DNA of 4,274 nt. It comes from a virus. Lineage: Duplodnaviria > Heunggongvirae > Uroviricota > Caudoviricetes. Below are positions 639-2,329 of this stretch, one piece after another. How positions within the stretch are numbered: the first letter of the stretch is position 1; each line of letters opens with the position of its first letter. Location of the stretch: IMG/VR virus record IMGVR_UViG_2690316115_000023. The stretch is one strand, 5' to 3'. The notes under the pieces were generated by a model. The model searched no databases, was not told where the DNA came from, and saw only the letters and a program-made list of their open reading frames with translations. The position numbers and the translations under genes were made by a program.

Positions 639-860
639 TTAATCCCCGTCCGTTGTTTTTCTTAAAACAGCTTCTGTCACGAAATCAGCATAGTTAGCGG
701 CAATATCAAGAATATTTAGCCCTGTACCTCTGTGCTCATCAGTGCAAAGAAAGAAAAAAGCCACCCGCATAATTTCAGATATTGACGAAAGCGCATCAGC
801 CGCATCATCAGGAACGCCGGAAAATTCTTGTTTCAGGGAATTAAAACGATCATCACGCAT
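639..860 (-). CDS. Small hypothetical protein (73 aa), second member of the paralog array
   Basis: ATG at 860 (8-nt overlap with the upstream TGA), preceded by the G8 tract as an SD-like element. TAA stop at 641..639. Carries GVPDDAADALSSI and GLNILDIA, paralogous to the 853..1074 product. The ORF track extends to 908, but that start has no RBS. Confidence 0.55.
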   Translation of the reverse strand: MRDDRFNSLKQEFSGVPDDAADALSSISEIMRVAFFFLCTDEHRGTGLNILDIAANYADFVTEAVLRKTTDGD

Positions 861-1074
861 AACCCCCCCCATTTTCACAATCAGCAACAAGAATATTTTT
901 AGCGTCATTCAGCGACCGCGTTGCGATGTATCGGATACATTCCAGGGCGAACGTTGTCCGGTCTTTCTGTTCTTCTCCCTGCGCAAGCTCTGCCGTGCAT
1001 TCAATATCAATAAGCGCGTGCATCAGCGTAGTGAGCGCGGCGGCGGCTGCGTCCGGTGTGGTTTTATTGCACAT
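853..1074 (-). CDS. Small hypothetical protein (73 aa), first member of a three-paralog array
   Basis: ATG at 1074 with AGGAGG 6 nt upstream; the start overlaps the upstream stop by 11 nt. TGA stop at 855..853. Shares the motif PD-A/D-AA-A/D-AL-T/S-T/S-L/I and NIL with the next gene, with synonymous codon differences. Confidence 0.6.
   Translation of the reverse strand: MCNKTTPDAAAAALTTLMHALIDIECTAELAQGEEQKDRTTFALECIRYIATRSLNDAKNILVADCENGGGYA
863..870. repeat. Homopolymeric C8 (G8 on the coding strand) tract at the junction of two overlapping genes
   Basis: Eight consecutive C at 863..870. It encodes Gly-Gly-Gly at the C-terminus of the upstream gene and sits 2 nt upstream of the ATG of the downstream gene. 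Confidence 0.9.
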
Positions 1075-1255
1075 GGCACACCTCCTGACGAATACGGGCG
1101 GCGAATACAGCAACACAACCGGACGGGCAACGGCTACGTGCTTCGCGTTCCGTCCAGGCGGTTACGTGGATGATTTGATGTTCTGACGCGCCAAAGATGA
1201 TAAAGCGCCAGAGAAAGGCGGTTTGAGAATGTACAAGGGTAGGGATAGTAGCCAT
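1064..1255 (-). CDS. Icd-like small protein, copy A (63 aa), translatable independently from an internal start
   Basis: ATG at 1255 with GAGGAGG 8 nt upstream. Sequence MATIPTLVHSQTAFLWRF...EREARSRCPSGCVAVFAARIRQEVCHVQ. The family assignment is from recalled Icd-like sequences (F-x-W-x-F near the N-terminus, EQEAR ... F-x-A-R near the C-terminus) and is unverified. Confidence 0.6.
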   Translation of the reverse strand: MATIPTLVHSQTAFLWRFIIFGASEHQIIHVTAWTEREARSRCPSGCVAVFAARIRQEVCHVQ

Positions 1256-1624
1256 GTTGGCAGCCTCCTCAGTGTGGTTAAGATAACCGCCACCGGAAAC
1301 GCCAATTTCGCTGGTGGCGGACTGTACAGGGTTGGCGTAACCGGACACTGAAGAAACCGGCGCGGATTGCTCCGCCCCCGTACAGCCCACCATTGATAAG
1401 GTGTGACTATGCGGCACAAAAAAACACGCGGGGCGCGTGTTATGCGCTTCAGTTTTGCCCAGGACGCCAATCCCGGCACCCGTTTTATGAGGTGCGCGGG
1501 AATCATAGCTATTTTCGACACTGGCGATCAACTGGTTTTTTTCTCCGATATTCAGGGCCAGAAAACGCCACACAAAGGCCGTTTGTGTGTGTACAAGGTG
1601 TGGTATATGATTTACGGCAACCAT
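1064..1624 (-). CDS. Two-domain read-through ORF (186 aa): tandem paralogous domains, tentatively Icd-like (host cell division inhibitor-like), joined by a Gly/Ser-rich linker
   Basis: ATG at 1624 with AGGAG 5 nt upstream (the ORF-track extension to GTG 1723 has no SD). The N-domain (PHLVHTQTAFVWRF...TEAHNTRPACFFV) and C-domain (PTLVHSQTAFLWRF...EREARSRCPSGCVAVFAARIRQEV) align with several synonymous codon differences (CAC/CAT, ACG/ACC, CGT/CGC), indicating protein-level conservation. There is no in-frame stop between them. TAA stop at 1066..1064. Confidence 0.5.
   Translation of the reverse strand: MVAVNHIPHLVHTQTAFVWRFLALNIGEKNQLIASVENSYDSRAPHKTGAGIGVLGKTEAHNTRPACFFVPHSHTLSMVGCTGAEQSAPVSSVSGYANPVQSATSEIGVSGGGYLNHTEEAANMATIPTLVHSQTAFLWRFIIFGASEHQIIHVTAWTEREARSRCPSGCVAVFAARIRQEVCHVQ
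1418..1440 (-). terminator. Intragenic intrinsic-terminator-like hairpin inside the first Icd-like domain
   Basis: On the minus strand: ACACGCG-CCC-CGCGUGU (7-bp GC-rich stem, 3-nt loop) followed by U6. It lies within the codons for NTRPACFF. Confidence 0.4.
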
Positions 1625-1654
1625 AACGGCTCCTAGTTTACGTTGTTGGTTAGA

Positions 1655-1697
1655 AGCCCTGCGAGTGGTAATGACACTTGCGGGGCTTTGCTTTTTT
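1655..1697 (+). terminator. Plus-oriented intrinsic terminator upstream of the RHH promoter region
   Basis: 13-bp stem (1655..1667 with 1675..1687, two G-U pairs), 7-nt loop, followed by UUGCUUUUUU. On the minus strand the two G-U pairs become C-A mismatches, so the structure is strand-specific. Confidence 0.55.
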
Positions 1698-1713
1698 AAG
1701 TGCTCTTGTGTTA

Positions 1714-1725
1714 AGGTGACCACCT
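1714..1725. promoter_or_regulatory. Palindromic operator-like site 1 (AGGTG-AC-CACCT)
   Basis: Perfect 5-bp inverted repeat with a 2-bp spacer, in the divergent intergenic region between the RHH gene (plus) and the small-protein operon (minus). Confidence 0.45.
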
Positions 1726-1748
1726 AACAATGGAAAGGCTAATTCAAT

Positions 1749-1760
1749 AGGTGACCACTT
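1749..1760. promoter_or_regulatory. Palindromic operator-like site 2 (AGGTG-AC-CACTT)
   Basis: Near-perfect inverted repeat overlapping the SD and start codon of the RHH gene; 35 bp from site 1. Confidence 0.45.
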
Positions 1761-1950
1761 GTCAACAATCAAACGCGATAAAAGCCCTAAAGGGGACGGG
1801 CAATCCCCACAATTCAGAATGCGAATTTCTCCAGAGCTAAAAGAGCAATTCGACAAAGAAGCACAGAGCGACGGCATAAGCCTAGCCAACTGGCTTAAAG
1901 AGTTGGGGCGCACTGAACTAAAGCGGCGCGGCATAGAACCCAAAGGATAA
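1759..1950 (+). CDS. Ribbon-helix-helix (Arc/Mnt/CopG-type) DNA-binding protein (63 aa from TTG 1759; 43 aa from ATG 1819)
   Basis: FRMRISPELKEQFDKEAQSDGISLANWLKEL fits the RHH fold pattern: a beta-strand with alternating residues, then helix A, a G-x-S turn and helix B (compare Mnt FNFRMPMEVREKLKFRAEANGRSMNSELL). The TTG start has AGGTG 5 nt upstream, overlapping the second palindrome. TAA stop at 1948..1950. Confidence 0.65.
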   Translation: MSTIKRDKSPKGDGQSPQFRMRISPELKEQFDKEAQSDGISLANWLKELGRTELKRRGIEPKG

Positions 1951-1992
1951 AAACTATCAGCGCCGTGGTGTGAGGTATTACGGCGCATTGCT

Positions 1993-2181
1993 ATGCAGGA
2001 CAACACAATGACCGATAAAGAATTGACCAAAACATTATCACCGGCACGGAAAAGACGGCGCAGAAAGATAGAGCATGAATCAGAAAGATTCGCACCATGT
2101 GCTTTTGCCCTTGAGCAATTCCTTAAAGAGTATAGGGAAAAGCGCTCATTGCAGGTATGGCAACGAACTGAACCAGACTGA
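1993..2181 (+). CDS. Hypothetical small basic protein (62 aa; 57 aa from the ATG at 2008), possible partner of the RHH protein
   Basis: ORF 42 nt downstream of the RHH stop, followed about 95 nt later by the plus-strand terminator. Arg/Lys-rich (KRRRRK). There is no canonical SD: GAGGT lies 16 nt upstream, inside the loop of a 7-bp hairpin at 1960..1986. Rare codons are present. Weakly supported. Confidence 0.35.
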   Translation: MQDNTMTDKELTKTLSPARKRRRRKIEHESERFAPCAFALEQFLKEYREKRSLQVWQRTEPD

Positions 2182-2276
2182 TTGCATTGCCCACCAGCCT
2201 GATAGCGGCTATCATCCCCGTGCTTATGTTTGGGATCACATACACATAAGGCGCAGCGGGTTAATTGTTCAGAAAG

Positions 2277-2303
2277 GCGGCTCCATATCGGGGCCGCTTT
2301 TTT
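2277..2303 (+). terminator. Rho-independent terminator, plus-oriented, closing the RHH / small-ORF unit; a weaker structure on the minus strand could act after alpA
   Basis: Plus strand: GCGGCUCC-AUAUC-GGGGCCGC (8 bp including one G-U) followed by U6 at 2298..2303. The minus-strand version has a C-A mismatch and a poorer U tract. Confidence 0.65.
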
Positions 2304-2329
2304 CGTGTTTGTCATATCTGTGATACCCG

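Follow-up and report, generated by a model that had tools for sequence, protein, structure and literature searches.

What does a frame of 186 uninterrupted codons encode when its two ends resemble each other and its middle resembles neither? The question arises for the minus strand of the window, a stretch of 4,274 nucleotides from a virus of the Caudoviricetes, where such a frame runs from an ATG at 1624 to a TAA at 1064. A sequence-only reading had noted, correctly, that the frame contains no stop and fuses the two ends, and had taken it for two Icd-like domains joined by a linker. We put at roughly three in four the probability that a P4-like or PICI-type satellite prophage instead has its antisense-RNA immunity region here, with two RNA genes lying within an open frame that ends in icd. 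The arrangement is ordinary, widespread and of an already known kind, with a small lineage-specific twist. The features on which this reading is built are collected in Table 1.

Table 1. Features of the immunity region and its surroundings (positions in the window; minus-strand sites are given from high to low where their own direction matters)
Feature	Position	Strand	Basis or remark
Next operon ORF, 73 aa, start overlapping the icd stop	856..1074	-	phrog_5146, E 1.6e-12
Long open frame, eta-like, through the RNA module and ending with icd	1064..1624	-	ORF reading; phrog_29966 (188 aa) over its full length, E 6e-110
icd-like gene, 63 aa (MATIPTLVHSQTAFLWRF...)	1064..1255	-	NF033153 profile; stop overlaps ATG 1074 of the next ORF
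Downstream C4 target (seqC / a2b2)	1264..1306	-	b2 ATTGGCGT 1306..1299; a2 ACACTGAGGAGG 1275..1264
C4 / P4 CI-type antisense RNA	1310..1397	-	RF01695, 77.6 bits (gathering score 45), full-length match
C4 loops	a' CTTCAGTGT 1353..1345; b' ACGCCAA 1338..1332	-	complementary to the flanking targets
In-frame ATG at the C4 5' end, 46 codons ahead of the icd ATG	1391..1393	-	position of Gifsy-1 orf45
isrK / P4 seqA-type RNA	1419..1495	-	RF01394, 66 bits (gathering score 50)
isrK intrinsic terminator	stem 1441..1423 + T7	-	terminator scan
isrK target sites	b1 ATTGGCGT 1471..1464; a1 ACTGAAG 1453..1447	-	complementarity to C4
Sigma-70-like promoter TTGATC-18-TATGAT, inside the frame	1502..1531	-	consensus scan; isrK 5' end about 6 nt downstream
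Shine-Dalgarno AGGAG (1634..1630), ATG 1624 and 29-codon duplicate icd head (MVAVNHIPHLVHTQTAFVWRFLALNIGE)	1538..1634	-	comparison with L005-L007
Candidate regulated upstream promoter TTGACA 1765..1760, 18 nt, TAGCCT 1741..1736	1714..1765	-	inferred, read from sequence
Small divergent gene for a candidate repressor (Arc-like / ribbon-helix-helix), ATG 1819 being its likely start	1759..1950	+	phrog_228

Only the last 63 codons of the frame correspond to a predicted Icd-like protein, a putative cell-division inhibitor. They score 57.1 bits against the NCBIfam Icd-like profile NF033153 (cutoff 25), which bears out the earlier assignment of the C-terminal part, and their product is 40% identical to Icd of a P1-type phage (E 1e-9). 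Codon-position entropy over the icd/kil body (0.69/0.65/1.12) displays a third-position excess in the icd-like family. The gene also has the strong ribosome-binding site claimed for it, GAGGAGG at 1270..1264 with an 8-nt spacer to ATG 1255. In L001, a genome whose DNA is identical to the window over the entire frame, PGAP annotates it as WP_150322679.1.

The N-terminal 75 residues of the frame, on the other hand, do not match NF033153 even at E <= 1. What stands at this end is a duplicated icd head. Its leader and first 24 codons are identical to those of stand-alone Icd-like genes of 64-65 aa in three related E. coli islands (L005, L006 and L007), in which icd is intact and the RNA module is absent; homology ends at about codon 29 (~1538). 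The Shine-Dalgarno sequence and ATG of the head are intact and the same as in functional icd genes, and the head is lineage-specific, being found in 2 of 76 C4 modules (see below). The claim of two paralogous Icd domains thus holds in one respect, that a real repeat links the ends: 1562-1607 and 1202-1247 are 76% identical over 46 nt, 360 nt apart, and at protein level 20 of 42 residues are shared (E = 4e-10). It fails in the other, as the upstream copy is a mere 29-codon head that the profile does not recognize. The further motif thought to be shared, EA-R/H ... F, is not colinear and falls on the translated isrK terminator hairpin.

The middle ~100 codons consist of a promoter, a terminator and two structured RNA genes, and the constraint on them is on RNA, not on protein. 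The isrK/seqA-type RNA has its own promoter at the 5' end and an intrinsic terminator at the 3' end; the -10 element of that promoter aligns with TATGCT at the equivalent place in a P1-type phage. What had been described as about 45 Gly/Ser/Ala-rich linker codons (residues 78-123) is exactly the C4 RNA plus the downstream target site, the latter showing up in a repeat search as inverted repeats I6 and I9, and its a2 site contains the icd Shine-Dalgarno. The decayed third copy said to lie in the linker dissolves into a 12-nt, 83% match inside the 3' arm of the C4 outer stem, an element paired in 99.6% of cells across 66 sequences, while the second repeat-like fragment, AAGGTGTGACTATG, is the spacer immediately upstream of C4. 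A weak Rfam match to rnk_pseudo in the region is a mere terminator-like hairpin.

C4 folds into a long outer stem and two hairpins (minimum free energy -46.9 kcal/mol), a structure backed by compensatory changes. Across the alignment 99.7% of cells are paired and 14 of the 27 pairs have changed on both sides, values that 0 of 500 shuffles reach. Double-change cells number 197 versus 9-18 in slid controls, and the covariation score is 0.466 versus 0.06-0.11. The predicted duplex of the C4 core with the isrK site has an energy of -36.4 kcal/mol (z -3.4), that with the downstream target -39.6 kcal/mol (z -5.4; 0 of 500 shuffles). Pairing of C4 with the upstream icd head or with the icd body is no better than chance (z -1.3 and +0.2, respectively). 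Among 76 modules, cognate duplexes average about -36 kcal/mol versus about -26 for non-cognate ones (p = 5e-29 and 8e-33). Complementarity of the C4 loops to both flanking targets is kept across the family by coordinated substitutions. Indeed, between the window and L120, which are 96% identical, TTGGCGT becomes TTAGCCT in both targets and ACGCCAA becomes AGGCTAA in C4. Codon-position entropy is flat over C4 (0.77/0.77/0.77) and over isrK plus the spacer (0.91/0.98/0.82), and by this measure the RNA stretch of the frame has no codon periodicity.

The absence of stops was examined in 76 non-redundant C4 modules, collected from viral contigs with one sequence pattern. In 63 of the 76, which are not independent events because the modules are phylogenetically related, this frame has no stop over 150 nt or more upstream of C4 and 300 nt or more downstream; the other five frames reach this openness in 0-1 of 76. 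Across C4 itself the frame is open in 74 modules. The ATG downstream keeps the register, at +135, +138 or +141, and beyond the RNAs the open frame extends into upstream sequence that is variable and comes in many lengths. The missing stop is therefore a conserved feature of the C4 module, in phages as well as satellites, and not the local mutation that a tandem array with a lost stop would entail. Genes on the antisense strand over the module, such as a plus-strand ORF of 77 aa (1403..1636), were considered and rejected, antisense frames being open in 0-1 of the 76.

Nor is the frame an artefact of assembly. It recurs, over at least 80% of its length, in 149 or more complete E. coli genomes (best identity 99.8%), and identical or near-identical DNA in so many independent genomes rules out the assembly error against which re-sequencing had been advised. 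No stop separates the two copies in L001, L002 or L120. Annotation of this DNA is divided: in most genomes PGAP calls an incomplete "ash family" pseudogene over the upstream part, whereas one RefSeq genome treats all 185 aa of the frame as one Icd-like protein. RefSeq thus holds two incompatible annotations of the same DNA.

Members of the C4 antisense RNA family are expected to be processed by RNase P from a longer transcript and to repress in trans. The immI operon of P1 and P7 reportedly consists of the c4 antisense RNA, icd and ant (Citron and Schuster 1990; Riedel et al. 1993). The window resembles it in that C4 precedes icd, the same order of elements being found in a P1-type phage, in the complementarity of the C4 loops to the icd ribosome-binding-site region and to an upstream a1/b1 copy, in the related Icd, and in the overlap of the icd stop by the next gene. 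In contrast to immI, the window belongs to a satellite island rather than a plasmid prophage, and icd is followed by small ORFs and replication genes instead of ant. A further difference is that P1-type phages have a short frame ahead of C4 (57-204 nt).

P4 is another close parallel. Its CI RNA and the seqA and seqC targets lie inside the nested eta and kil genes (Forti et al. 1999, as reported in PMC10111431; PMC3632133), and in P4-like prophages IsrK corresponds to seqA and C4 to the CI RNA (PMC3632133). In P4 a 214-codon frame passes through seqA and CI and ends in a protein of 65 aa. The window has the same three Rfam elements in the same order, an immunity promoter internal to the long frame (whose ATG lies upstream of it), an in-frame ending in a short protein of similar size, a nested short gene that has a AGGAGGCTGCCA..ATGGCTAC start region to itself, and the setting of an integrase/AlpA satellite with the module upstream of replication genes. 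That the locus could yield both a long and a short product, as had been supposed, fits this precedent, where Eta has Kil nested at its C-terminus (PMC10111431). As for the differences, the short protein of the window is P1-Icd-like; BLASTP gave no alignment of it with P4 Kil, so that only the position is shared. The long frame is not coupled to alpA and starts with a borrowed icd head that brings its own Shine-Dalgarno; an Arc-like gene and operator-like repeats lie upstream; and a clear intrinsic terminator closes the isrK part.

The isrK-orf45-anrP region of Gifsy-1 likewise produces a short terminated IsrK and a read-through transcript (PMC4825925), and an ORF of about 45 codons overlaps its C4-like RNA (STnc1160); in one species it forms a fusion with the gene downstream. 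Ribosomes translate this ORF, orf45, which is coupled to the next gene; its nucleotides, not its amino acids, are conserved (PMC4825925). Unlike the frame in the window, it begins downstream of IsrK and as a rule ends where anrP starts; moreover, IsrK acts there as an activator in trans and the downstream gene is an antirepressor.

These data bear on three other explanations. Had an array of Icd-like genes lost its stops, leaving a two-domain protein whose flexible linker holds a decayed third copy, one would expect the open frame and the repeat at both ends that are indeed there, and the single RefSeq call of one Icd-like protein over all 185 aa would be apt. We regard this as extremely improbable, since the upstream copy is 29 codons long and fails the Icd model, the supposed linker, made up of two RNA genes plus promoter and terminator, is devoid of codon periodicity, the supposed third copy is paired within the C4 outer stem in nearly all sequences, and the open frame is ancestral to the module, leaving no local stop loss. 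It is hardly less improbable that the middle is a genuine protein domain overlapping the RNA genes, the 186-aa product being a regulator fused to Icd. Several matches point that way: the PF10554 (Phage_ASH) profile aligns over its whole length with residues 40-133 (63 bits), this stretch also matches several PHROG "transcriptional regulator" families, and translations of the middle region look conserved across modules. Against it, the amino-acid changes follow the switches in RNA pairing (GIGV, YANP and EIGV versus GISL, KANP and EISL in L120), entropy is flat over codon positions, and the equivalent position in P4 is occupied by an RNA immunity factor, the former "cI protein" ORF, which matches PF10554, being obsolete (PMC3632133). 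The PF10554 match is a conceptual translation of isrK, C4 and the target site, and by the tests run no independent protein domain is present.

A more serious objection is that the long frame may mean nothing: only the 63-aa Icd and the two RNAs would be made, the lack of stops would be a side effect of conserved, G+C-rich RNA, and the head would be a dead scar of recombination. The RNA stretch bears no coding signature and the frame encloses a promoter and an intrinsic terminator, both of which suit this account, as do the PGAP pseudogene calls and the restriction of the head to two modules. We nevertheless consider it unlikely. The frame is open well past the RNAs and always in register with the downstream gene, an openness that the other frames reach in 0-1 of 76 modules; P4 genetics assign a function to translating the long frame (PMC10111431); Gifsy-1 orf45 is translated (PMC4825925); and the Shine-Dalgarno and ATG of the head are intact and match those of functional icd genes exactly.

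If the locus is an immunity region, as we favour, it may work as follows, by analogy with P1 immI and P4. As long as the element is a prophage, the promoter within the frame would make isrK and, by read-through and processing, the C4 RNA. C4 would pair with the downstream site and hide the icd Shine-Dalgarno; expression of icd and of the coupled replication genes would therefore be blocked. When transcription comes from the upstream, probably repressor-controlled promoter, ribosomes entering at ATG 1624 would translate through isrK, C4 and the target, disrupting the terminator and the RNA pairings and rendering expression insensitive to immunity, as with P4 Eta; the conservation of the open frame lends this step indirect support. 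The functional protein would be the 63-aa Icd, and the 186-aa product a by-product of read-through. As for the head, a 360-nt cassette (promoter, isrK, C4, target and second icd head) may have become joined to a stand-alone icd gene; alternatively, deletion between the two heads may have given rise to the stand-alone form.

Upstream of the head, two AGGTGACCAC repeats (1714-1723 and 1749-1758; repeats D7 and I11) overlap the candidate promoter, whose -10 is weak and which the consensus scan did not call. The divergent small gene matches the Arc-like repressors of phrog_228 (E 5e-7) and scores 20.4 bits against Pfam HicB, slightly below the cutoff of 21. A tentative extension, which we find rather doubtful, is that the duplicated head has been co-opted as a translation start, giving ribosomes access to the RNA module from an Arc-like-controlled promoter, and that translate-through is a rule of the whole C4 family. 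To our knowledge, cancelling of immunity by translation has been demonstrated so far for P4 Eta alone. If the head is indeed co-opted, this satellite lineage would possess a two-layer switch in which a protein repressor gates a bypass of RNA immunity; if the rule is general, translating through an antisense RNA would be a design principle of C4-type immunity that includes lambdoid and Stx prophages. The survey indicates that the P4 eta-type open frame through immunity RNAs is widespread, and a mechanism that sets translation against RNA immunity is therefore testable in many prophages.

The practical consequence concerns annotation. PF10554 has served in satellite surveys as a marker of the P4 epsilon protein; in fact it recognises a translated RNA module. 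Translated regulatory RNAs likewise account for most of the 186-aa "fusion" and of what PGAP calls an "ash family protein", and this reading avoids the mis-annotation.

In the island the elements follow the order integrase, AlpA, immunity region, small ORFs, DUF4222 and, immediately past the window, a RepA-type helicase. The 73-aa ORF that follows icd is annotated as a hypothetical protein in L001 and L002, and eight neighbouring small ORFs had no match in NCBIfam. The alpA gene ends at 2330, and about 600 nt with two opposite-strand genes separate it from the long frame. A 221-aa ORF on the minus strand (2315..1650), which merges into a 432-codon frame in L001, was considered as the N-terminal part of an alpA-coupled Eta. 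It was rejected: it matches no family, while both plus-strand ORFs that it overlaps match PHROG families, and it is probably a shadow ORF. Between alpA and the long frame a hairpin followed by a T-run can be read by eye at about 2276-2306.

The locus is an antisense-RNA immunity region of the P4/P1 type with a nested reading frame, an arrangement of an already known kind; what is lineage-specific in the window is that the long frame borrows its start from an icd head. As the sequence-only reading had proposed, the minus-strand frame from ATG 1624 to TAA 1064 runs for 186 codons without a stop, a strong ribosome-binding site (GAGGAGG, 1270..1264) precedes an internal ATG at 1255, and the two ends of the frame share a repeat. 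The repeat covers 46 nt at 76% DNA identity (1562-1607 versus 1202-1247, 360 nt apart) and is also evident in protein (20/42 identities, E = 4e-10). An Rfam scan of the window gave two above-threshold matches, C4 and isrK, both on the minus strand and both within the long frame; a c4-a1b1 match overlapping isrK was sub-threshold. Residues 78-123, previously taken for a linker of about 45 Gly/Ser/Ala codons, are exactly C4 plus the stretch from C4 to the icd start, and the supposed decayed third copy of the domain amounts to a 12-nt, 83% match within the outer stem of C4, on its 3' arm. A P1-type phage has the same order of isrK-like RNA, C4 and icd. By BLAST, DNA-level conservation with phages is limited to window 1236-1495, the RNA module, which is matched in 320 phage records ahead of differing genes, for example those for Icd, Rha and antirepressors.

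Features of the immunity region and its surroundings
Feature	Position	Strand	Remarks
73-codon ORF	start 1074	-	overlaps icd stop
C4 antisense RNA, RF01695	1397..1310	-	Rfam 77.6 bits, gathering score 45
Intrinsic terminator of isrK	stem 1441..1423	-	followed by seven T; at isrK 3' end
isrK, RF01394	1495..1419	-	Rfam 66 bits, gathering score 50
Sigma-70-like promoter	1531..1502	-	TTGATC, 18 nt, TATGAT; ends 6 nt before isrK 5' end
Strong intrinsic-terminator-like hairpin	1653-1697	+	15 pairs, then TTTGCTTTTTT; just upstream of icd leader
AGGTGACCAC repeats	1714-1723 and 1749-1758		near-palindromic GTGGTCAC; either side of candidate upstream promoter
221-codon ORF	1650-2315	-	no family match; overlaps two + strand ORFs that match PHROG families
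Hairpin GCGGCTCCATATCGGGGCCGC, then TTTTTT	2276-2306		between + strand small genes and alpA end; read by eye

C4 modules were gathered from viral contigs by a stem-anchored pattern that is blind to reading frame. Across 66 distinct C4 sequences, 99.7% of cells are paired in the structure predicted for the window, and 14/27 pairs have changed on both sides. Double-change cells number 197, versus 9-18 when partners are slid, and none of 500 shuffles reached the observed values. Loop a' (CTTCAGTGT) and segment b' (ACGCCAA) of C4 are complementary to ACTGAAG and ATTGGCGT in isrK and, downstream of C4, to ATTGGCGT and ACACTGAGGAGG, the icd Shine-Dalgarno lying within the last of these. Against shuffled targets, the duplex energies are -36.4 kcal/mol (z = -3.4) for the isrK site and -39.6 kcal/mol (z = -5.4) for the downstream site; pairing with the upstream icd head or the icd body is at chance level in the same comparison. 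The 76 non-redundant modules hold 50 loop combinations, with cognate duplexes averaging about -36 kcal/mol versus about -26 for non-cognate ones (p = 5e-29 and 8e-33), and in 62/76, spanning twelve b' sequences, a perfect 7-mer complement of b' is found on both sides. In L120, the nearest diverged relative (96% identical), both targets read TTAGCCT instead of TTGGCGT and C4 reads AGGCTAA instead of ACGCCAA, a coordinated change at three sites. On this evidence both RNAs are real and probably work by pairing. One viral contig (L039) has two C4-pattern matches on the same strand, 2.6 kb apart (7251-7304 and 9881-9934), where the immunity module may be double or in tandem.

The open frame had been ascribed to a stop codon lost from a tandem array, and this explanation fails. 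The frame of the window ORF is stop-free across C4 in 74/76 modules and, in 63/76, remains so over at least 150 nt of upstream and at least 300 nt of downstream sequence, whereas each of the other five frames is open to that extent in 0 or 1/76; a downstream ATG is in register in every case (+135, +138 or +141). In phage P4, a 214-codon frame (8812..8168) crosses seqA and CI, its last part being a 65-residue protein beginning MATTLTPSHPEF. As in the window, a long frame spans the immunity RNAs and ends in a short protein, the P4 genes being the nested eta and kil; the 63-residue Icd-like protein of the window has no similarity to P4 Kil by BLASTP. In Gifsy-1, an ORF of ~45 codons overlies a C4-like RNA; it is translated, with coupling to the following gene, and is conserved in nucleotides but not in amino acids, and in one species ORF and following gene are fused (PMC4825925). 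The window has an equivalent in-frame ATG at 1393, 46 codons ahead of icd. On these comparisons, the absent stop is a conserved design feature and not a loss. Entropy at codon positions 1, 2 and 3 is 0.77, 0.77 and 0.77 in C4, 0.91, 0.98 and 0.82 in isrK plus spacer, and 0.69, 0.65 and 1.12 in the icd/kil body, the only one of the three regions with a protein-like third-position excess. By this measure the RNA stretch of the long frame is not evolving as protein, though the frame is kept open.

The claim of two Icd-like domains holds for one of them: against the Icd-like model (cutoff 25) the C-terminal 63 residues score 57 bits, and they are 40% identical to Icd of a P1-type phage; the N-terminal 75 residues have no match to that model. 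In three E. coli islands (L005, L006 and L007), intact Icd-like genes of the stand-alone type (64-65 residues) have the leader, Shine-Dalgarno and first 24 codons of the window (MVAVNHIPHLVHTQTAFVWRFLAL) as their own start, the homology fading by codon 29; neither C4 nor isrK is present at these three loci. In L006 and L007 the protein tail is also that of the downstream copy in the window. From the shared head and tails it follows that the window has a stand-alone icd with a 360-nt cassette between head and tail, containing a promoter, isrK, C4, the target with its Shine-Dalgarno and a second, P1/P4-type icd head. The cassette could have been joined into a stand-alone icd, or deletion between the two heads could have produced the stand-alone genes; among the 76 modules, the extra head occurs in the window and L120 only. 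The conserved icd head seems to be a recombination junction between islands. The TQTAFVW codons of the upstream head (1569-1589, minus strand) form a perfect 8-bp hairpin, CACACAAA-CGGCC-TTTGTGTG, then GCGTTTTCTG; flagged as terminator-like, it is also found in the intact icd genes of L005-L007 and is absent from the downstream head. A further related locus, L002, is the same as the window from the leader as far as ...LWRF, after which it has another Icd tail (L002 from about 2070, window about 1190).

For P4, PMC10111431 (after Forti et al. 1999) describes a constitutive promoter inside eta; RNA interactions at CI and seqA terminate its transcript, from which CI RNA is processed. In that account Kil is a truncated product of read-through, full-length Eta comes from an upstream promoter only, and eta translation prevents termination. 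The anatomy, RNA structures, pairings with their covariation, conserved frame and head origin are established here. Analogy with P1 immI and P4 suggests that isrK and C4 would be made from the internal promoter, and that C4 would mask the icd ribosome-binding site, keeping icd and the coupled replication genes off. Upon transcription from the candidate upstream promoter, ribosomes beginning at 1624 would traverse the module and so override terminator and RNA pairing alike, with the 186-residue chain as a by-product.

RefSeq has two annotations for identical DNA, one a pseudogene ("ash family protein") together with an Icd-like protein of 63 residues, the other a single 185-residue Icd-like protein, and the whole long frame has a PHROGs family. 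Pfam PF10554 (Phage_ASH) matches residues 40-133 (window 1226-1507, minus strand), where isrK, C4 and the target site are conceptually translated. Its P4 match is the obsolete "cI protein" ORF (8330-8521), not epsilon, which matches PF25738. PF10554 has served as the epsilon marker in a published survey of P4-like satellites (PMC8628076); the marker therefore probably detects the RNA immunity module instead. Of 5426 complete E. coli genomes, at least 149 have the arrangement.

Beyond the 73-codon ORF, the minus strand carries more small ORFs and then DUF4222. At L001, a locus almost the same as the window, a RepA-type helicase comes next, and that island, with an integrase and an AlpA-like gene, adjoins tRNA-Pro. 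Upstream of ATG 1624 lie a hairpin and both AGGTGACCAC repeats, and also a perfect TTGACA (1765..1760) whose -10 is weak; they are adjoined by a small divergent gene similar to Arc-like or ribbon-helix-helix proteins, and we infer a repressor-controlled promoter. L001 and L006 have GGTAATTACC repeats at the place of AGGTGACCAC, which suggests that operator and repressor specificities may be swapped between otherwise near-identical islands. The 1653-1697 hairpin, at whose position L001, L006 and L007 have one of other sequence, has no obvious plus-strand gene to terminate; a plus-strand promoter-like site (1257-1284) could give an antisense transcript ending there. The 2276-2306 hairpin is likely a terminator between alpA and the immunity region. 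The 221-codon minus-strand ORF is probably a shadow ORF. In L001 (2298-3596) its equivalent is joined to the icd frame as a single ~432-codon frame starting directly after alpA, a striking length given the alpA-coupled eta of P4.
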